Assembly (NCBI RefSeq): GCF_036321535.1
Contig: NC_087436.1
Coordinates: forward strand, 14,756,001-14,820,000
Length of the DNA stretch: 64,000 bases
Direction of reading: 5' to 3'
From: Camelus dromedarius
Lineage: Eukaryota
Translations under genes and position numbers: made by a program
The notes under the pieces: model-generated
What the model saw: the letters and a program-made list of their open reading frames with translations, nothing else
What the model was told of the DNA's origin: nothing
Databases searched by the model: none
Shown: piece by piece, positions 1 through 63,450 of the stretch
Position numbering within the stretch: the first letter of the stretch is position 1
How the letters are laid out: every line of letters begins with the position of its first letter

Positions 1-1057
1 ATAACCCTTGCAGACTTCAGACAATACTACAGAGCTACAGTAATCCAAACAGCATGGTGTTGGCACAAAATCAGACACTTATGGCTCAATGGAGCAGAAT
101 GGAGAGCCCAGAAATAAACCCACACACCTATGGTCAATTAATCTGAGAGACAGAGGTAAGAATATACAATAGAGAAAAGACAGTTTCTTCAGCAAACAGG
201 TGTTGGAAAAGCTGAACAGCTGCATGTAAATCAGTGAAGCTAGAGCACCCCCTCACACCACACACAAAAATAAACTCAAAATCGCTTTAAGTCTTAAACA
301 TAATACAAGACACTGTAAACCTCCTAGAAGAAAACACAGGCAAAATATTTCTTGATATAAACCTTAGCAGTGTTCTCCTAGGGCAGTCTACCAAGGCAAT
401 ATAAATAAAGGTAAAAACAAATGGGACCTAATTAAACTTAAAAATTTTTGCACAGCAAGGGAAGCTATAAACAAAACAAAAAGACAACCTATGGAATGGG
501 AGAAAATATTTGCAAATGATGTGACTGACAAGGGTTTAATTTCCAGAATATACAAACAGCTCATACAACTCAATAACAAAAAAAAACAAACAACCCAATT
601 GAAAAATGGACAGAAGACCTAAACAAACGCTTCTCCAGTGAAGGCATACAAATGGCCAATAGGTACATGAAAAATGCTCAGTATTGCTAATTATCAGAGA
701 AATGCAAATCAAAACTACAATGAGATATCCCCTCACACCAGTCAGAATGGCCATTATTCAAAAGTCCACAAACGATAAATGCTGGAGAGGGTGTGGAGAA
801 AAGGAACCCTCTTATGCTGTTGGTGGGAATGTAGTTTGGTGCTGCCACTATGGAAAACAGCATGGAGATTCCTTTAAAAACTGAAAATAGACTTACCATA
901 TGATCCAATAATTCCACTCCTGGGCATATATCTGGAGGAAACGCTAATTCAAAAAGATACATGCACCCAAATATTCACAGCAGCACTATTTACAATAGCT
1001 AAGACATGGAAACAACCTAAGTGTCCATTGACAGATGACTAGATAAAGAAGATGTGG

Positions 1058-1117
<60 letters not shown>

Positions 1118-1589
1118 GAATACTACTCAGCTATATAAAAAATGCCATTTGCAGTAACATGAATGGATCTGGAGATTGTCGTACTAAACAAAGCCAGAAA
1201 GAGAAAGATATCATATCATACCATATGTTATCACTTGTATGTGGAAATCTAAAAAAATGACACAAATGAACTTATTTACAAAACAGAAATAGACTCACAG
1301 ATGTAGGAAACAAACTTATGGTTACCAGGGGAAGGGGAGGGTGGAGGGATAAATTGGGAGTTTGGGAGTTGCAGATACTAACTACTACATATATATTATA
1401 TATATATATATATAATAGATAAACCACAAGGTCCTACTGTATAGCACAGGGAAGTATATTCAATACCTTGTAGTAGCCAATAATGAAAAGAATATGAAAA
1501 GAAATATATGTGTGTATAACTGAACCACTGTGCTGTACACCAGAAATTAACACAACATTGTAAACCGACTGTACTTCAATTAAAAAAAA
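1..1589 (+). mobile_element. LINE-1, 3' part of ORF2 plus 3' UTR and A-tail (young artiodactyl/camelid-type, truncated by the window start)
   Basis: ORF 684-884 reads '[39 protein letters not shown]', the L1 ORF2 C-terminal cysteine-rich region. It carries stops and frameshifts and ends in 'gactgtacttcaattaaaaaaaa'. Confidence 0.95.
1066..1115. repeat. (AC)25 microsatellite inside L1
   Basis: Perfect AC dinucleotide run. Confidence 0.97.
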
Positions 1590-4044: not shown

Positions 4045-5520
4045 CTTTATTGTTGATTTGTTTTTTATCACCATATAATTCATACACAAAGAAGTTCATC
4101 CTTTTAAAATGTACAATTCAGTTGTTCTTAATGCATTCACAGAGTTACACAACCATCACCACTGTCTAATTTTAAAACATTTTCTCACTCCGAAAAGAAA
4201 TCCCATACCCATTAGCAGTCACTCCCTCCAGCCCTCACCCCTTGGCAACTACTAAGCCACTTTCTGTCTCCATGGATTTGACTGTCCCGAACATTTCATA
4301 AACACGGACTCATACAATATATGATCTTCCTTGACTGGCTTCTTTTACCTAGCATAAAGTTTTCAAAGTCCATGCATGTTGTCATATGTAGGTATCAGCA
4401 CTCCGTTCCTTTATGGCTGAATAATAGCCATTGTATGGATAGACCACATTCTGTGTATCCATTCATCAGCTGTTGGATGTTTGGGATGTTGGGCTATTGT
4501 GAATAATGTTACTATGAGCATTTGTGTGCGAGTTACGTATAAACATATGTTTTCTTTTCTCTTGGGTATATACCTAAGTATGGAATTACTCGTCCATATG
4601 GTAACTCTAAGTTTAACTTTTTGAGAAACTGCCAAACTGTTTTCCAAAGTGCTTGCCTTATTTTATCAGCCCACCAGGAACGTATCAGGGATCAAGTGTC
4701 TCCTCACCCACACTTGTATTGTCTGTCTTTTTTATTTTAGCCATCCTAGTGGGTATGAATCAAATTGTGATTCTGATTTGCATTTCCTTAATAACTGTTG
4801 ATATTGAATACCTTTCCTCTTTTTTTCCAGCTTTATTGTGGTATAATTGATAAATAAAATTTTTATGTTTGTAACATGTACAACTTGATGTTTTGGTGTA
4901 TGTGTACATTGTGAAATAATAGCCACAATCAAGCTGATGAGCATATCCATCATAGTAGATGTTGAGTACTTTTTCATGTTCATCTTCTTTATAAAGATGT
5001 CTACTCAAATCCTTTGCACATTTAAAGATTGTATTATTGTTTTTTTATTGACGAATGATAAGAGTTCTTTATATATGCTGGATATAAATCCTTTATCAGA
5101 TACACAATTTGCAAATATTTTCTCCAATTCCATGGGTTGTCTTTTTACTATTTTAATGGTGTCCTTTCAAGCACAGAAGTTTTAATTTTGATGAGGTTCA
5201 ATTTACTTATTTATTTATTCAGTCTCTTTTGCTGTCTATGTGTTATCTAAGAAATCATTGCTTAACCCAAGGTCATGAAGTTATGCTTATGTGTTCTACT
5301 CAGCATTTTATAGTTTTGGTTCTTACATTTAGGTCTATGATCTATTTTAAGTTAAATACATTTTTATGTATGGTGTGAGTTAGGAATCCAACTTCATTCT
5401 TTTGCGTGTGGCTATCAAGTTGCCCCCAGCAGAATTTATTAAAAGGACTATTCTTTTTCCTATTGAATTATCTTGCCAGTGTTGATGATCAACTGACTAT
5501 AAATGTGAAGGTTTATTTCT
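4045..5520 (-). mobile_element. L1MB-like LINE (3' UTR and ORF2 end), interrupted by a nested L1 fragment
   Basis: Antisense L1MB 3' end 'aaaatgtacaattcagttg...cacaaccatcaccactgtctaatttt', then antisense ORF2 'gatataaatcctttatcagatacacaatttgcaaatattttctcc'. Confidence 0.85.
4817..4957 (-). mobile_element. Short L1MA-like 3' end nested in the L1MB element
   Basis: T-tract, then 'cagctttattgtggtataattgataaataaaa...cacaatcaagctgatgagcatatccatca'. Flanked by a degenerate direct repeat at 4800-4816 and 4958-4975. Confidence 0.7.
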
Positions 5521-5530
5521 ACTTCCTTGG

Positions 5531-6022
5531 GTTTTTTAAAATATTGAAGTATAGTTGATTTATAGTGTTGTGTTAATTTCAGGTGTACAGCATAGTGATT
5601 CAGTTTTTTTATATATATATGTGTGTGTGTGTGTGTATATATATATGTACATATATATACACACATACACACACATATATTCTTTCTCAGATTCTTTCTC
5701 ATTATAGGTTATTACAAGATACTGAGTATAGTTCCCTGGGCCATATAGTAGGTCCTTGTTGTTTATTTTCTATGTAGTAGTATGTATCTGTTAATCCCAA
5801 ACTCCTAATTTATCCCTTCCCCCATTTCCCCTTTGGTAACCGTAAATTTGTTTTCTATGTCTGCAAGTTTATTTCTGTTTTGTAACTAAGGTCATTTGTA
5901 TTACTTTTTAAATTCCGCATATAAGTGATACCATATGACTTTTGTCTTTCTCTGTCTGACTTACTTCACTATGATAATCTCTAGGTCCATCCGTGTTGCG
6001 ACAGATGGCATTATTTCATTCT
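5531..6022 (-). mobile_element. Young L1 3' end, 5'-truncated
   Basis: Reverse complement of the same 3' UTR as 1100-1589 ('attgaagtatagttgatttatagtgttgtgttaatttcaggtgtacagc'). Possible TSD 'tacttcctt' at 5520-5528 and 6023-6031. Confidence 0.92.
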
Positions 6023-6985: not shown

Positions 6986-7075
6986 GGGGGAGGGTACAGC
7001 TCAGTGGTAGAGCGTGTGCTTCGCATGCGTCAAGGTCCAGGGTTCAATCCCCAGTACCTCTATTAAAAAAAAAAA
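6986..7075 (+). mobile_element. tRNA-derived SINE (camelid Vic-1-like), short form
   Basis: A-box 'agctcagtggtagag', B-box 'ggttcaatccc', A-tail. TSD agaatattaaaggccg (6968-6983) / ggagtattaaaggctg (7076-7091). Confidence 0.92.
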
Positions 7076-19199: not shown

Positions 19200-19625
19200 C
19201 CGTAATCATAATGGAAGTGCAACAATATTTATAGTAGCAAAATAAAATAAATAAACAAAAAATAGAACTAACCTAAACGTCCAAGTTAAATTGTTGTGCA
19301 TCCTTACATGAAAATGTGCTGAGCTATTAAAAATGAGATGATCAAAGGCCCTCTGACGATGTGGGAAATTATAAGGTGTCATTAAGTGAAGCAAGCAGGT
19401 TACAGAGTAAGGATTTGGTAAAATCCGAATTTGATATATGCAAATATATGCAAATACATGCATAGGTAAAACCAATAGTGTGTTACTGTAAAATGTTAAT
19501 GGTTATTTCAGGATGATAGGATTACAGGTGGCTTTCAGTCTTCTTTTGTGCCATTCTCTATCTTCAAAAAACACTTTTTATGACAATTGTCTATTTCTTC
19601 TGTACTCGGGAAAAAAATCCAATAA
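19200..19625 (+). mobile_element. Old L1ME-like 3' fragment
   Basis: 'caatatttatagtagcaaaa...aacctaaacgtcca...attaagtgaagcaagcaggttacagag...ggattacaggtggctttc'. Confidence 0.65.
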
Positions 19626-21180: not shown

Positions 21181-21410
21181 TTTATTATTATATTACTATC
21201 TCTGTTACTTTATATTATATATTATTGTATGTTATACACTATATATAATATATAATATATATTGTTGTTATATACTACATATCATTATGTATACTATTAT
21301 ATATTATTATATGTGGTATATCACATATATTATATATAGTATATATTATATATTATATTATATATTTATATTACATAGTAATAATATATTACTGTAAATT
21401 ATATTATAGT
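21181..21410. repeat. AT-rich low-complexity (TA/TAT)n tract
   Basis: About 230 bp almost entirely A/T, built of degenerate 'tattata' units. Confidence 0.9.
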
Positions 21411-23094: not shown

Positions 23095-23130
23095 GTTTGC
23101 ATATGATTTGCATATGATTTGCATATGAAT
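23095..23130. promoter_or_regulatory. Tandem POU/octamer motif array (candidate enhancer)
   Basis: (g/a)tttgcatatg x3 with perfect ATTTGCAT at 23106-23113 and 23117-23124. Function is inferred only. Confidence 0.45.
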
Positions 23131-40421: not shown

Positions 40422-41377
40422 CCCCCAAGGTATGCTGGATCCCTGCTTCCCGGCCCATCGTGTTCATCTGTTGTTTAACAGGCCTTCATGTTGTTTGGAG
40501 AACGAAGCCCCAGCGTGCAAACAAGCCCTTCCCCCGTACCCTTGCTGACTTTTGTCACTTGATGTCTCATAACTCACTGAGCTTTGCTCTGGACTGTGGT
40601 TACGCCCAGCAACTCGTAGTTTCTCAAAGTGCCGCAACTGTCCCGTGTCTTTGTTTTCGTTTCCCAGAACGTTGTTTTTCTGGAGTGCTTCTAGCCCTTC
40701 CTATATGAAAAATTTCCCTTTATCCTGCAAGAATCAGTTCAGTTGGCTCCCCTCAGAGAAACCTCTCCTGGCCTCCCATGGCTTCCCTGTGTGACGTCAC
40801 TGCCCCTCAGAAACAGCTCTGCATCACCACCAACCTTATTTCTAAGGTCACATGTTTGCATGTCTCCTGGGTGAACAATAGCTCATGGAAGACCCTGAGT
40901 GTTGCCCCGTATGTAACAGGGTATAAGCCCAGATCAGTGAATCCAGTTGAATGAATACATGCCTGGATGAGAGAAAGGGGGAGGGCAGTGGTCACACTCT
41001 GCTTCCATAAATACCCCCTCGCACCCTCATAAGCCCGAGCAAAGAGGGTGGGTACCACTCCAAGCATGGATGTACTGATCAATTTCATCATTCGCTCATC
41101 CTTTGACTCATCTTACAGAACAGCTACTATTCACTCGTTAATTTATTTGAAATGATTTGCACTGTTGAGAATTAAGCCTGAACAAATAGACAAAGGGAAG
41201 AAACAGACAATAAAGGAAATATTTACTACATCAAATTTTGATGTATGTTTGTCAAGGAAGAAACAGCAAGGCCAGAGGCTAGATCATATAGGGCATCTTA
41301 GGTCATCACTGTTAGGAGCTACTGAGTGACGAGAGGAGTGGCCTGGCAGCTTTCACGTTTAAAAGACTCACTCTGTA

Positions 41378-42370
41378 TTGTGCTCCCTGATTTCAAATGG
41401 TACTACAGAGCTACAGTCATCAAACCAGTGTGGTACTGGCACAAACACACACGCACATCAACAGAGCAGAATCGGGAACCCAGAAATAAACCCACTTATA
41501 AGGTCAATTAATCTATGACAAAGGAGACAAGAATACTGGGAAAAGGCAGCCTCTTCAATAAGTGGTGCTGGGAGAGCTGGACAGCTATATGTCAAAAAAA
41601 AAAAAAAATCAAACTAGACTACTTTCTCATCCCATATAAAAAAATAAACTCAAAATGGATTGGAGACTTACATGGAAGCCCTGAAACCATAAAACTTTTA
41701 GAAGAAAACACAGGTAGTACATTCTTTGACATCAGTCTTAGCAATGTATTTTTTTGGCTATATCTTCTCAGGCAAAGGAAACAAAAATTAAAATAAACAA
41801 ATGGGGCCATATCAGACAAAAAAACTTTTTCACAGTGAAGGAAACCATCAACAAAATGGAAAGGCAGCCTACTGAATGGCAGAAGCTATTTACAAATGAT
41901 ATATCTGATAAGGGGTTGATATCTAAGATATATAAAGAATTCATACAACTCAACGCCAAAAAAACACAATTAAGTTAAAAAATCAGCAGAGGACCTGAAT
42001 AGACGTTTTCCCAAAGAAGACATACAGAGGGCCAACAAGCACATGGAAAGATACTCAACATCATCAGGGAAATGAAAATCAAAATCACAGTAAGATGTCA
42101 CCTCACACCTGTCAGAATGGCTATCATCAAAAAAAGAACAAATAATCAGTGTTGACGAGGACATGGAGAAAAGGGAACCCTTGTACACTGTTGGTGAGAA
42201 TGTAAACTGATGCAGCCACTATGGAAAACACTATGGTGATTCCTCAAAAAATTAAAAATAGAACGACTTTATGATCCAGGAATTTCACTTCTGGGTACTT
42301 TTTCCAAAGAAAACAAAAACACTAATTTGAAAAGATATATGTATCCTAATGTTCATAGCAGCATTATCTA
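41378..42370 (+). mobile_element. LINE-1 ORF2 3' segment, lacking 3' UTR and tail
   Basis: 'LPDFKWYYRATVIKPVWYWHK', '[11 protein letters not shown]', 'ETINKMERQPTEWQKLFTNDISDKGLISKIYKE' are L1 ORF2 motifs, frameshifted. Confidence 0.95.
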
Positions 42371-54559: not shown

Positions 54560-57045
54560 AACATATACGTATTTCATTATGGAAAATTCCAAACATAAAA
54601 AAGCAGAGAGAATAAAACAATGAACTCCCATATATCCATAACATAGATTAAGGGGCAATCAACTCAGGACCAATCTTGTTTCATCTCTAGATTCACATAC
54701 GGCCCCTGTCTCCTCTTCTCTCATGCTGATTTGGAAGCAAACCTAAAATATTATCTCTTTTCTTTCACAGGTATTGCTGTGCATGTTTCTAAGGGGAAAA
54801 GCTTTAATGTAACCAAAATACCATCATCACAATGAAGTTCAAATAATGATTGTTATGTAATATTATCAAGTGTCCAGTCAGTGTTCAAATTTCCCTAATT
54901 GTCTTCTCAATGTCTTTTTTTAACTGAAGTATAGTCAGTTACAATGTGTCAGTTTCTGGTGTACAGCATAATGTCCCAGTCATATATGTATATTTACATA
55001 TATCAATTTTCATATTCTTTTTCATTAAAGGTTATTACAAGACATTGAATATAGTTCCCTTACTATACAGAAGAAATTTGGTTTTTATCTATTTTTATAT
55101 GTAGTGGTTATCATTTACAAATCTCAAACTCCCAGATTTAACCCTTCCCATCCCCTTTCCTCCGCTGGTAACCATAAGATTGTTTACTATGTCTACAAGT
55201 CTGTTTCTGTTTTGTAGATGAGTTTATTAGTGTCCTCTTTTTTCTTTCTTTCTTTCTTTTTTTAGATTCCACATGTAAGTGATATCATATGATATTTTTG
55301 TTTCTCTTTCTGGCTTACTTCACTGAGAATGACCATCTCCAGGTCCATCCATGTTGCTGCATATGGCATTATTTTATTCTTTTTTATGACTGAGTACTAT
55401 TCCATTATATAAATATACTACAACTTCTTTATTCAGTCATCTGTAGTTTTCTTATTTGAATCATATTCCAAGTAAATTTAACACCTTATAATGGTTGATA
55501 TATCTTTTAAGTCTCTTTTAATTTATAAGTTTCTCCCCACTCCCTCCTCTCCTGCCTCATTTTTCCCTCCTCTCTATTTTTCATTCCCTTTCTCTCTCTT
55601 TTCCTGCAATTTACTTATTGAAGAGAAAGGGTCATTGTCCTGTAGTTTTCCATAGTCTAGATTTTGCTGACCACATTTTTATGTTGTAATTTAAAATGTT
55701 CCTCTGTCCCCTCTCTTGTCCTTAAATTGGTGTCTAGCTCGAGACTGGAGTCACACTCAGATTCAGGTTCAACTTTTTGGCAGTGCTGTAAAGGCAATGT
55801 TGGGTACCTCCATCAAGCTCCACATAATGTCTTTTGGTCTCCCTTTTGGTGATGTCAGCTGATGATCACTGCCTAGATCCATTTGACCATGAGGAGCTGC
55901 AAAGTGGTGATGTCCTAATTTGATCATTCTTTCTTCATTTATTAACAAGACTGCTTCTAACTTCTCATCATCTAGTTGGTGACCCTAAGCTATAGGTCAC
56001 AGGAAAGGCAAGATAAGTGTTTGATTTAAAATCTGCTTGTTCCCTAGCGTCTGTTAGATGTGACCAAGGAGTTTCTTCATTAAGGGTTATTCTGAACCCG
56101 TGGATTTAAATGTATTCGAGGTGTTTCAATCCACTGCAGTACTATTTTTATTGATGATGCTAACGTTCTGCCTTTGGATACTGGGAACTTCTTCAAGTTG
56201 GCTCCTGAGTGTTTTGACCTGGCTCCAGTGGTCTTTGATGTCTTCCTTGCTCCCTGTTTTTAACAAGATGCTCCAGGAACATCTCACACAGTTCCTACCC
56301 TAGACCTAGAGTCAGCCTTTTCTCCAGGAGAAATCGGCTTTTTCTCCTGGTTCTTTTTAATAGAAATGCATTTAAAGACCACAATCTGGGCACTAGGGAT
56401 GTTCACTGGTACAGGATTGATTTTCATTTCTGGGCCTTTTCAGGATAAATATGTTAATATGTTTTTTTTAAAGATAAAATATATTTTCAGTTCATACTGA
56501 TATTTCTAATTAAAATTCAGGACTACAGGATTTTTACTATTCCATCTCATATTTTTATCTGTGACTTCATTGCAAATATTTTTTTCAGCTTGTCATTTAT
56601 TTCCTTTCTTCTTTATTTTTCTTATGGCGCTTTTTGCTGTACAAAAACAAATAAAATTAAATTGTTAAGGAGTCAGATTTATTAGTCTTTTCCTTACTAT
56701 ACCTGAGTTCTGAGTCATAGTTAGGAAAGCTTCCCTACTGTCGTGTGATAAGAGAATTCATCCATATTTTATTCTAATATGTGTATGGTTTCACTTTTAC
56801 TTACATTTAACTTTCTGATCTGTTTGAAATTTGTCTTCTTGTGTCTCGATAAAGAAAAGATCCAGTTTTATCTTTTTGAAGCATGCCTTTTCAATTACCC
56901 AACATTATTTCTTAAAAAATCCATCTTTTCCCCCTTCATATGCGATGGTATCTTCATTGTAAATTAAATTTCCATATGTGATTGGACCTATTTCTGTACC
57001 ACTGGTCTTTCTGTCTGTTCATGAGCCAATACTACACTGTATTAT
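54560..57045 (-). mobile_element. L1MC4/L1MC5-like antisense fragments, interrupted by a young L1
   Basis: 'ttcattatggaaaattccaaacat', 'tccagtcagtgttcaaatttccctaattgtc', 'gtttcaatccactgcagt', 'agttcatactgatatttctaattaaaattcaggactacagg'. Confidence 0.8.
54915..55445 (-). mobile_element. Young (camelid-type) L1 3' end nested in L1MC
   Basis: 'tttttaactgaagtatagtcagttacaatgtgtcagtttctggtgtacagc...ccaggtccatccatgttgctgca'. Confidence 0.92.
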
Positions 57046-58439: not shown

Positions 58440-59125
58440 GTCTTTTTTAAAACATGCATGGTTAAATTGTGGTACAATATATGTAATATAGCATTTACCA
58501 TGTAACTGTTTTTAAGCACTATGCAATTCAGTGACCTTACGTACATTCACAGGATGCAACCATCATCATCATCCACCAGCCAAACTTGTTCCTCCTGGGA
58601 CACTAAAACTCGGTACTCATTGGATGATAACTCCCCACCCTTCTCTTCCCGCAGCCCCTGGCAACCAACATTTTATTTTCAGTCTATGACTTTGACCACT
58701 CCAAGTACCTCGTTTAACTGGAATCGGGCAGTATTTGCCCTTTTGTGTCTGGCTTATTTCACTTAGCATAATGTTCTCAAGGTTCATCCATATTGTTACA
58801 TGTGTCAAAATTTCCTTCTTTTTAATAGTTTATTTATTAATTATTGCATTATTTATTTTATTTTGGTGGGGGGTGTGGGGAAGTAACTAGGTTTATTTAG
58901 TTTTAGAGGAGGCACTGGGGATTGAACCCAAGACCTCTTGCATGCTAAGCATGTGCTCTACCACTTGAGCTATACCCTCCCCTCTAAAATTCCCTTCTTT
59001 TTTGAAGCTGAGTTACACTCCACTGTAGGTATAGGCCACACTTTGTTTATCCAGTCCTCTGCTGATGGACACTTTGGTGGCTTATGTGTTCTCATGCTTA
59101 TGAATAACGTTGCTGCGATGTGGGT
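58440..59125 (-). mobile_element. L1MB-like 3' end, interrupted by a SINE
   Basis: 'cagcccctggcaaccaacattttattttcagtctatgactttgaccactc...ggcttatttcacttagcataatgttctcaaggttcatccat'. Resumes after 59000. Confidence 0.85.
58822..58985 (-). mobile_element. tRNA-derived SINE (Vic-1-like), long form
   Basis: Antisense 'ggggattgaaccc...gctctaccacttgagctataccctcccc'. TSD aaaatttccttcttt (58807-58821) / aaaattcccttcttt (58986-59000). Confidence 0.92.
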
Positions 59126-59269
59126 GCATAATGTACTGCCTCCTTACACTTGGTTCCTGTATCACTGAATGAACCTGCACATAAAATTGCAATGCTGCTG
59201 CAGCTGCTCTTTGGCGACCTGGAGTCACGGGGACATCCCCAGGGTCACACTCGACGTCCCCCCAAGGAT

Positions 59270-60850
59270 TTGGTTTCTAGCCTGCATAGATTGGCAGTAA
59301 CAGGAAAATATTTCAGAAACAGAAAGCACTGAAGCATGATTTTTCTTTGTTCCTGCAAAACAACTTTGGTTTATTTTCTCCCATATGAGGCTTTGTTTTC
59401 ACCTATGCAAATGTGATTCATCTTTCAGCGCCAGAGAAGGGCCTTAAATAACATAATTACTTCACCAATCATCGACTTGGCTACTGGAAATCATCTTTTT
59501 AGTGAGGTCGACTGCAGTTGCTTGAGCTGTAGACAGAACCCAAATAACAAGCAAACTTCTTTTCTTAAAATGCTAATTATTCTCTGAAATGAGTGTTGTT
59601 TAAAAGGGGGGATTTAATTGGATATTAAATCTGCAATTGAAAGATTAAATTATGACATAAACAAACACATCAGTCTAATAGGTCTTTGGAAAAAAATCAG
59701 GAATCCCACTCCAGTTTTTGTTAAGTGCAAATGCATTCAGATATAGATTTCATTCTCTTCCCATTTTGCTGTGCTTTGTAGCTTTCAGCCTGAATTCTTT
59801 CCTGGGCTGGTTCCAAAGGAAATCATCTCAGGAGGCTGAGAAAGCTCAGGATTCTGTGAGCACTGGCCCCAAAGTAACCTTTTGCTTAAAGACTTTACCT
59901 GTATAAATGAAATTCAGGAAATGTTGAGAAACCATTCTGAAATGAATAATATGGAAGCAATTCCAAGGGGTATAATTTGGGATGCATCAAAGGTAGTGGT
60001 TACAGACCACATTTGCCTCACTGTAAGTTTAAAGAAAATCGAAGATCAAAACAGGTACATGTTCGAGAAGGAAATTAAGAAATGAGAAGTACATCATCGC
60101 AGTAGAAAAAAATCCCAAATGATTTTTCAGAAAATTATTTCAAGGCAAAGTAATACCCTTTTTAATAGAAAAGAACGTGACCCCCCCCCCCTCCAAGTTT
60201 ATAAAGCAGGCTTCCCGGGAATAGGAAATAAAGATGAGGAGCTCTCCAACTTTACATTTTAAAAAGGTACAAGAAAGCAGAAGTTTTTTTTCCTCTCCCT
60301 AAAATAGGTACCCATCTGGGAGGGTGAAAATACAACCACGACAGGAAGTCTTTTTAAACACAGATGCCCGGGGCTGGGAGAAATGAAAGGAAAATGCAGT
60401 AGCCTCCGCCACACTTCAGCCAGCTGCCCTAGCCTGAGACAGCAGCATCCCCAGTGCGGGAGTGTCTCCCCACCAAGACGGGAGGTACAAGCCAAAGCAA
60501 GTGATGGCACATTCTTGGTGCTGCCTTCACCTCTTACGAGATCCTTGAAAGTAAAATATTAGATGGGTGTGCGACTTATGGGGAAAATTCTGGTATGTTG
60601 TTTGAGAAATACTGTCCTTCATTGTCAGTTTATCAAACTGCCGTGGTGATCTCTAAATCAGATGAATTTTTAACACGTTTCTTTTCCACGTTTAAAAACT
60701 TGGTAATGAGATTTTCTTAAATGTTTTATTCTGGGAGTAAATTCAGGGAAATAATATTTTTTGTTGGTGAATCTTTTATCCTCATCTAATGAAATTCCTT
60801 GTCAGTCTTTTATTAGGTGACAATAAAGCATTTTAACAGCATAGAGTGAC
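59270..60850 (+). mobile_element. Ancient decayed L1-clade ORF2 fossil (APE endonuclease, linker, N-terminal RT), possibly of non-mammalian L1 type
   Basis: Colinear motifs across frameshifts: RKIFQKQKALKHDFSLFLQ (59302-59358); PNNKQTSFLKML (59540-59575); GD(F)NWILNLQL (59608-59639); SLIGLWKKIRNPT (59672-59710); WPQSNLLLKD (59864-59893); WDASKVVV (59978-60001); EKEIKK; FIKQASRE/GNK (60198-60232); CFILGVNSG..LLVNLL (60722-60778); LLLGDNKAF-NSIE* (60807-60849). Confidence 0.75.
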
Positions 60851-60859
60851 CAGGTCTGG

Positions 60860-61176
60860 ACACTGTTTGAAGTACAGAAAATTTATCTTTATATTGTTAG
60901 TTTTTAGCTGTGATAATGGTAATATAGTTATGCTTGAAAAAAGTTAGAGATATATATTGAAATATTTCCTGAAAAATGTGATCTGTCTTGGATTTGCTTA
61001 AAAAGAAATGTAGAACCTGGGTAGGTGGGGAGGGACCAGGGAGACGTGAGACCGCCCAAGTGCTGATGGCGGTCAAGGCTGGTCCTGAGTGCTGGGAGGT
61101 CAGTATGCTCGTGTCTATCTTGCATATGTGTGAAATTTTCCACAGCAGAAAGTTTTCTTCTAATTAAAAAAAAAAA
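60860..61176 (+). mobile_element. Old L1M (L1MD/L1ME-like) 3' end
   Basis: 'tttttagctgtgataatggtaatatagttatg...gagatatatattgaaatattt...tgtcttggatttgcttaaaa...tgaaattttccaca', followed by an A-tail. Confidence 0.7.
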
Positions 61177-61184
61177 GCTGTCTT

Positions 61185-61333
61185 GGCGGAGAGGGTATAG
61201 CTCAGTGGTAGAGCACATGCCTAGTACGCACGAGGTCCTGGGTTCAATCCCCAGTACCTCTGTTAAAAAAAAGTTAGTAAATAAACTTAAGTAACACCCT
61301 GCCCAAAGTGAAATGATTAAAAACAGTAACAAC
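61185..61333 (+). mobile_element. tRNA-derived SINE (Vic-1-like), long form
   Basis: 'gagggtatagctcagtggtagagcacatgcctagtacgcacgaggtcctgggttcaatccccagtacctc'. TSD aaaagctgtct (61173-61183) / aaatgctgtct (61334-61344). Confidence 0.92.
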
Positions 61334-61473: not shown

Positions 61474-62105
61474 CTTTTTTTTTAATTGAAGTATGTAGTC
61501 AGTTTACAATTTTGTGTCAGTTGCTGGTGTACAGCATCATGTTCCAGTCATACATATGTGTACCTATGTTCCTTTTAATATTCTATTTCATTATAGGTTA
61601 CTACAAGATATTAAATATAGTTCCCTGTGCTGTACAGTAGAAACTTGCTGTTTATCTATTTTATATGCAGTAGTGTGTGTCTACAAATCTCGAACTCCTA
61701 GTTTATCCTTTCAAACCCTCTTCCCCTGTCCCATAACCATAAGTTTGTTTTCTATGTCTGTGAATCTGTTTCTGTTCTGTAAATAAGTTCATTTGTGTCT
61801 TTTTTTTTTTTTTTTCGGATTTCACATATGAATGTTATCATATGGTATTTTTCTTTCTCTTTCTGGCTTACTTCACTTAGTGTGATGATCTCCAGGTCCA
61901 TTCATGTTGCTGCAAATGCATCATTTTATTCTTTTTTAATCACTGAGTAGTATTCCATTGAATAAATATACCACAATTTCTTTATCTAGTCATCTGTTGT
62001 TGGACATTTATGTTGTTTCCATGTCTTGGCTATTGTAAACAGTGCTGCTATGTACTTGGTGGTGCAGGTGTATTTTTTGCATTAGAGTTCCCTCCAGATA
62101 TAGCC
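61474..62105 (-). mobile_element. Young (camelid-type) L1 3' end
   Basis: 'tttttaattgaagtatgtagtcagtttacaattttgtgtcagttgctggtgtacagc...catgtcttggctattgtaaacagtgctgctatg'. Confidence 0.93.
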
Positions 62106-63304: not shown

Positions 63305-63450
63305 GGGGGAGGCCATAGCTCAGGGGCAGAGCACACGCTTAGCATGCGCAGGGTCCTGGCTTCAATCCCTACACCACCACTTTAAAAAAAAAAAAAAAAA
63401 AAGACCTAAGAAAATAATAAAATGCTGTTGGGTTCATTAAAAAAAAAAAA
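63305..63450 (+). mobile_element. tRNA-derived SINE (Vic-1-like) with a bipartite poly(A) tail
   Basis: 'ggggaggccatagctcaggggcagagcacacgcttagcatgc...ggcttcaatccc'. TSD aaagagacaagtag (63290-63303) / aaagagccaagtgg (63451-63464). Confidence 0.88.

Follow-up and report, generated by a model that had tools for sequence, protein, structure and literature searches.

Introduction

The closest described systems are the L1 fossils of Frith 2022, who found that the human genome holds 137 L1 and 12 L1-Tx1 fossils of pre-amniote age, plus 5 L1 and 2 L1-Tx1 fossils of pre-tetrapod age (PMC9004415). These were mostly missed by RepeatMasker and often lie in gene deserts; they are conserved, sometimes overlapping regulatory marks (PMC9004415). 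Here we describe a locus in the dromedary camel which, like them, is a single decayed L1 ORF2 relic with a fish-type best match in a gene desert, non-coding and apparently slow-changing, whereas the camel locus was traced among placentals only. Its claimed length of 1.58 kb exceeds that of the five tabulated pre-tetrapod L1 fossils (138-514 bp), and its firm core of 387 bp is of similar size to them (PMC9004415). The available parts of the text and supplement of Frith 2022 make no mention of FBXW7 or GATB (PMC9004415), and there is about an even chance that the locus is already in Frith's complete online fossil list. The class of such relics has thus been known since Frith 2022, and the locus is a further example of it, not a new element type.

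Other old elements are comparable in part. In Repbase, X9_LINE is listed under L1 and MARE6 under Tx1 (Kojima 2018, PMC5753468). Compared by listing and not by sequence, the fossil is like both an ancient L1- or Tx1-clade relic in mammals outside the L1M series, but X9_LINE and MARE6 are repeat families and the fossil is single-copy. With mammalian L1 (the L1M series and camel L1 ORF2) it shares clade and domain order, and its core is visible to a camel profile; it differs in that the core scores lower with that profile, the non-core segments score at chance, a grouping with mammalian L1 is weakly rejected in trees, and it is not multi-copy. The best profile match and the tree neighbours of the fossil are two teleost L1 ORF2 sets, A and B (Boleophthalmus, Gadus, Kryptolebias, Oryzias), with which it shares tower residues that are absent from mammalian L1. 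However, teleost L1s are intact ORFs of 1250-1300 aa, while the fossil is truncated, broken and about 25-30% identical to them. L1TD1 and Lyosin are likewise very old L1 sequences retained by the host, but they are derived from ORF1 and protein-coding, whereas the fossil is derived from ORF2 and is without coding constraint. ORF1-derived exons have been described (Kitao 2025, PMC12129022), and it has been argued that L1 entered therians by transfer (Ivancevic 2018, PMC6036668). In the literature searched (few subscription papers, Repbase Reports not among them) we found no paper on the locus or its element.

Our data suggest that the camel locus is probably a single old non-mammalian L1 insertion that persists as a non-coding, slow-changing and likely co-opted DNA element.

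Setting and extent of the fossil

We analysed a window of 64,000 nucleotides, C1:14,756,001-14,820,000 of a 2.31 Gb assembly (44% GC, CpG ratio 0.27). Searches with gene families placed TMEM154 at C1:14.448-14.456 Mb, an F-box exon at 14.729 and GATB from 15.228, and the last two WD40 coding exons at C1:14,737,738-14,739,315, about 17 kb ahead of the window start. From gene order we take the F-box/WD40 gene to be FBXW7 (human 4q31.3). The fossil lies 76 kb beyond its stop and 411 kb ahead of the first GATB match, in the FBXW7-GATB desert. Consistent with a gene-desert position, Pfam recognised no convincing host exon among the window's stop-to-stop ORFs of at least 62 aa, of which 355 out of 357 were scanned (two low-complexity ORFs were left out), and three weak matches fell far under the cut-off. 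Elsewhere in the window, an AT-rich low-complexity tract of about 190 bp lies at 21211-21402 in GC-richer surroundings.

The features of the fossil are as follows; shuffle counts are with the teleost-type profile described below.

59270..60850, + strand: the entire fossil, corresponding to the 5' half of an L1-clade ORF2 from the endonuclease through the tower into the first part of the reverse transcriptase (RT), as judged by motif order and segment tests
59270..59450, + strand: presumed endonuclease N-terminus, with a motif at 59302-59358; alone not significant (100-179 of 500 shuffles as good)
59540..59639, + strand: middle of the endonuclease, aligned to profile positions of about 116-153 and equalled by 4-16 of 500 shuffles
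59675..59763, + strand: C-terminal third of the endonuclease, aligned to profile positions of about 179-211 and equalled by 8-31 of 500 shuffles; best blocks of the endonuclease (EN) chain
59858..60244, + strand: core, endonuclease end and tower (baseplate and tower helices); best preserved and most clearly common to other mammals
60362..60385, + strand: weak pre-RT motif (166-197 of 500 shuffles as good)
60722..60850, + strand: RT start and last segment that can be recognised, aligned to profile positions of about 560-614 and equalled by 2-11 of 500 shuffles
59405-59412, + strand: octamer motif, one of 8 in the window, where 3.95 are expected

A sequence-only reading of the window had named a series of L1 ORF2 motifs, and translation of the + strand recovered all of them in L1 ORF2 order, with motif starts at 59302, 59540, 59608/59610, 59675, 59864, 59972, 60062, 60198/60224, 60362, 60722, 60761, 60807 and 60835. 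The series is joined across 8 frame switches, and stops and frameshifts occur throughout, in agreement with the statement of that reading that this is not an intact gene. The hallmarks of an active element (intact frame, RT active site, 3' poly(A), target-site duplication) are absent from the fossil. The ORF2 signal stops at profile position about 614, ahead of the RT active-site motif. We set the 3' limit at about 60850 because an unrelated interspersed repeat occupies about 60890-61010.

Rfam returned only 3 tRNA-like SINE heads from the window, none of them inside the fossil: 58907-58979 (-) and 61191-61262 (+), which flank it, and 6990-7062 (+). We presume that these tRNA-headed SINEs are of the camelid type; visual inspection suggests a similar head at about 63305-63385. 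Just 5' of the fossil, 58982-59134 (-) is a piece of mammalian L1. When the 124 kb around the site was scanned, a vertebrate ORF1 profile built from 6 sequences gave nothing above 0 bits (the same profile picked up mammalian ORF1 at E 3.7e-40), and no further teleost-type ORF2 pieces were found.

The core derives from L1 ORF2

We fetched 54 L1 ORF2 proteins, of which 38 sequences of at least 1170 aa made up the teleost-type profile, and built a camel L1 profile from 6 of 15 loci. In many L1 copies of the camel genome (C1 loci), ORF2 is open over 1293 codons. Alignment to the profiles was frameshift-aware. With the teleost-type profile the core scored 52.7 bits, and 150 shuffles gave a mean of 18.3 and a maximum of 23.7; with the camel profile it scored 34.4 bits against a shuffle maximum of 22.1. 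None of 200 shuffles and none of 282 real stretches of the window reached the core score. The core derives from L1 ORF2, of which we are practically certain. In human ORF2p, to whose residues 249-336 the core aligns, the tower comprises residues 239-440 (PMC10830420).

Support for the fossil beyond the core is modest. Endonuclease, tower and RT follow each other in order on one strand, with the core firm and the flanks modest. With the teleost profile, neither the EN nor the RT flank was significant when each was taken whole (19-43 of 200 shuffles did as well) or in local and anchored tests; in the anchored EN test the camel profile came out slightly ahead (12 of 300 shuffles did as well, vs 125 for the teleost profile). 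Block-chain tests varied with block width, such that 0-35 of 150 shuffles were as good for EN and 7-80 of 150 for RT, the latter with the range ended at 60860. An extension of the RT signal to about 61130, as good as which were 0 of 40 shuffles, was dropped, as 60890-61010 is the interspersed repeat. In narrow colinear windows, 3 of 5 pieces gave p of about 0.005-0.06, the EN N-terminus and the 60362 motif not being significant; combined by Fisher's method, the five pieces gave p 0.001-0.04 with non-mammalian profiles and 0.67-0.79 with the mammalian profile. The windows were set with the motifs known and several methods were tried, which makes these p values look better than they are. The mammalian profile was matched as well by 325-417 of 600 shuffles of the endonuclease middle, and the camel profile by 104-274 of 500 shuffles of the RT start.

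The colinear signal of about 1.6 kb that had been proposed is therefore firm over some 390 bp, while the remainder is modest, and the proposed RCPGLGEM motif near 60362 stands in the correct place but scores no better than chance. A frameshift-aware comparison, of the kind suggested with these claims, put the core above every shuffle. Pfam found 0 families in six frames of 59000-61200.

Among 1.84 billion representatives, 7 proteins matched at E<=0.001, of which 6 are mammalian-looking counterparts of the fossil (62-87% identity) and one, P0008, is a teleost-type L1 fragment (25% identity, E 2.5e-4); no mammalian L1 was among these matches. A phmmer search of the PDB gave L1 ORF2p residues 249-336 at E 0.24-0.55, ranked below one ribosomal protein, and a profile of the counterpart peptides matched 0 PDB sequences at E<=1. 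When the camel translation was used to look for longer relatives by word index, 0 of 733 candidates were confirmed. In the ESM Atlas, the peptide P0022 fell in unnamed clusters (0.92-0.93) with a recognition of 2256, under the informative level.

Counterparts in other mammals appear to change slowly

Protein records yielded 31 peptides that are translated counterparts of the fossil. They carry no species names, were found by similarity and include several near-copies. We compared 25 of them, setting aside P0004, P0023 and P0024, which span a different part, and the near-duplicates P0012, P0013 and P0016. Since the locus is single-copy we infer that these counterparts are orthologous, a view that draws on copy number and not on flanking synteny. 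Over residues 174-226, 19 of the 25 peptides are 81-89% identical to the camel sequence and the other 6 only 62-81%. By simulation, 81-85% identity corresponds to about 0.08-0.10 substitutions per site in peptides that were found by similarity. The neutral distance from camelids to other artiodactyls is about 0.18-0.25. The simulated probability of at least 81% identity was 0.018 at 0.20 substitutions per site, and at 0.25 it was reached in 0 of 400 runs. This suggests that the core changes at roughly half the neutral rate, an estimate that is uncalibrated and subject to detection bias, and that part of the fossil is likely to be under non-coding constraint.

The kind of change points to DNA and not to protein. 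The 77 distinct changes had a mean BLOSUM score of -0.35, compared to -0.36 +/- 0.17 in neutral simulation, and the reading frames of the counterparts diverge past a shared tower motif, with lineage-specific stops and frameshifts. Because the changes are non-conservative and the frames diverge, we find no coding constraint today; to judge from its reading frames, the fossil encodes no protein. At the codon after the shared tower motif, 28 peptides have an end (10), W (7), R (5), G (1) or are uninformative (5), as CpG decay would give. The "KQ" signature that had been read as typical of fish, amphibian and reptile L1s proved fragile, one counterpart having W there and another ending there.

In the assembly the fossil DNA matched only itself. 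With P0022 as query, the fossil locus was found at 1.6e-75 and the next matches were ordinary L1 copies of at most 39% amino-acid identity; both copy-number searches score the best candidates only. A metagenome scan for orthologous DNA gave 61 pattern matches and 0 confirmed loci. Of 24 sequencing runs, 14 (from 3 coded organisms) hold at least half of the words of the locus; the share was 0.05-0.13 in 4 runs recorded as RNA and 0.29-0.46 in 2 guessed to be RNA, and this word presence is no evidence of expression.

A second, non-mammalian-type L1 lineage may have lingered in, or been transferred into, stem therians or eutherians and left very few copies, one of them the functionless fossil seen here, still readable through an age younger than apparent or through slowly mutating DNA. 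That the changes look neutral in kind would be expected of such a fossil. P0004 also fits, with an identity of just 66% across the EN part (matching at 73 of 111 residues from 59264 onwards and at 9 of the 34 before it), and so do the counterparts found, which were traced at placental level only, and the argued transfer of L1 into early therians (PMC6036668). Against this, 19 of the 25 peptides are 81-89% identical in the core, which exceeds the neutral simulation at 0.20-0.25, and a late lineage should leave sister copies, whereas none above 39% amino-acid identity appeared among the best candidates scored. We consider this explanation unlikely.

Probable grouping of the fossil with non-mammalian L1

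A further 80 loci, 42 of them with enough ORF2 kept, were used for a tree with three teleost-type sets (A, B and C), a mammalian set and an invertebrate group, which we regard as Tx1-like. Scored against these sets, the core gave 45.4 bits with A, 38.1 with B, 37.0 with C, 35.2 with the mammalian set plus L034, 30.8 with the mammalian set and 24.2 with the invertebrate group. By these scores (45.4 vs 24.2 bits) the affinity of the fossil is with vertebrate L1 rather than with the invertebrate L1/Tx1-like group. In a 35-row tree it fell inside the teleost A+B set with support of 95/97 and inside the vertebrate L1 clade with 100/100, on a long branch (1.52) and with 16-19% of the tree columns covered. 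A grouping of the fossil with mammalian L1 was weakly rejected (AU test, p 0.031), and of 15 diagnostic columns 5 favoured fish, 1 mammal and 9 other. The local background served as an internal control. In the 124 kb around the site the fossil was the only L1 ORF2 match with a teleost score above its mammalian score (32.2 vs 16.3 bits), and all other L1 ORF2 pieces, including old ones at 10-55 bits, preferred the mammalian profile. Mammalian L1 ORF2 3' fragments in the window lie at 1-1219 (+), 4423-5548 (-), 41350-42329 (+), 55265-55450 (-), 56554-56997 (-), 58731-59134 (-) and 61821-62081 (-).

The composition of the reference sets limits these comparisons. The teleost set was retrieved with a profile that contained the fossil and P0008, and because the fossil was in the query the core comparisons lean to teleost. 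The mammalian profiles hold 2-6 sequences, young camel L1 and one other mammal, without an L1M or L1ME consensus, and the reference sets are without any identified amphibian, reptile or coelacanth L1. With a profile made from the counterparts only, the medians were equal, 17.9 for 55 non-mammalian and 17.35 for 22 camel loci, the top four being non-mammalian. L034, from a metagenome contig, is a divergent L1 ORF2 that is sister to mammalian L1 (98; 88/98 in the 35-row tree).

Could the fossil be an ordinary mammalian L1M copy in extreme decay, its fish look produced by decay and by the broader teleost profile? Such a copy would explain why the camel profile is also above null in the core (34.4 vs a maximum of 22.1), why the medians are equal with the counterpart-only profile, why the AU p is only 0.031 on a long branch, and why adding L034 moves the mammalian profile to p 0.017-0.052. 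It does not explain why all the remaining L1 ORF2 pieces of the 124 kb prefer the mammalian profile, why the unbiased search of the whole library led to a teleost-type L1 and zero mammalian L1, why the diagnostic columns run 5 to 1 for fish, or why the non-core segments are at chance with mammalian profiles. We regard a decayed L1M copy as quite improbable.

Our data therefore indicate that the fossil is likely not mammalian L1, and its descent from a non-mammalian L1 lineage appears likely with the thin mammalian reference set and the long branch taken into account. That a non-mammalian vertebrate L1 fits the fossil better, as the sequence-only reading had proposed, is borne out by set scores, tree, AU test and diagnostic columns. 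The phylogeny placed the fossil with teleost L1s, but on a long branch and against a mammalian set of young camel L1 and one other mammal. As a separate observation, five teleost L1 proteins (P0129-P0133) are labelled both tilapia and ferret in NCBI nr; this double label is probably a mislabel and could mimic horizontal transfer.

Possible former coding use

We noticed after the fact that 9 of the 15 motif pieces, over 59540-60778 (1.24 kb), share one frame, and that the reading goes back to this frame after each local slip. Over 59402-60187 the frame runs for 262 codons with 6 stops, and the counterparts have ORFs of up to 178-185 aa. The shared frame leaves a small chance of former coding use. 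If the locus is a unitary pseudogene, amniote or synapsid ancestors would have kept ORF2's 5' half as a host protein or exon that was dead by the time placentals radiated. Domestication of L1 ORF1 exons is described for sauropsids (PMC12129022). A unitary pseudogene is very unlikely, as the differences among living mammals do not conserve amino acids, stops and frameshifts differ by lineage, the EN catalytic motifs are in different frames, and no intact host-like homologue was found in the 1.84 billion representatives or the longer proteins searched. Equally slight is the chance that a domesticated fish-type ORF2 (endonuclease-tower) was held in frame by selection in early amniotes or synapsids and later became a placental cis-element near FBXW7; under the same reading a reptile, monotreme or marsupial may have it open to this day. 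No ORF2-derived vertebrate host gene of such a kind was found in the literature searched.

Origin and significance

Target-primed reverse transcription is established for L1. The single old insertion that we prefer would have arisen by this route, from a vertebrate L1 lineage that is still active in teleosts and gone from mammals, and would probably have been passed down from pre-mammalian ancestors. We lean towards a Paleozoic age for the insertion. Today the element is dead, with only the 5' half of ORF2 recognisable between younger mammalian repeats, and its readability would have been retained through slower-than-neutral change, mainly at about 59775-60100. The slow part would most likely be a co-opted non-coding element, for example a distal cis-regulatory site in the FBXW7-GATB desert. 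We propose this by analogy with conserved fossils of the same class that sometimes overlap regulatory marks (PMC9004415), and an enhancer-like function of the fossil is accordingly a tentative candidate.

If this is correct, the fossil is one more witness that L1 lineages which are now non-mammalian existed in mammal ancestry. It bears on vertical inheritance (PMC9004415) as opposed to horizontal entry of L1 into therians (PMC6036668). Frith 2022 had already made the general point from well over a hundred L1 fossils. Should the full 1.58 kb hold, its length would allow placement in a tree, which is rarely possible for fragments of 100-500 bp. The locus would also provide a candidate regulatory element, open to testing, at a distance of 76 kb from the tumour suppressor FBXW7.

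Octamer and TAAT content

The proposal of constraint or exaptation had been accompanied by a perfect octamer and by TAAT-rich segments. The octamer is present as a perfect match, but the number of octamers in the window is at chance level; P0004 has the same residues across it, which is consistent with retention and no proof of it. The claim of TAAT richness failed, with a TAAT/ATTA count of 20 that lies inside the 13-36 of 11 window stretches below 42% GC. We therefore rejected octamer and TAAT enrichment as a sign of exaptation, both being at chance level, and what remains of the proposal is indirect evidence that the core may change more slowly than neutral. Two tandem repeats, at 23096-23128 (period 11) and 19434-19462 (period 10), contain two perfect octamers each, 4 of the 8 in the window, and may be better POU-site candidates than the octamer of the fossil.
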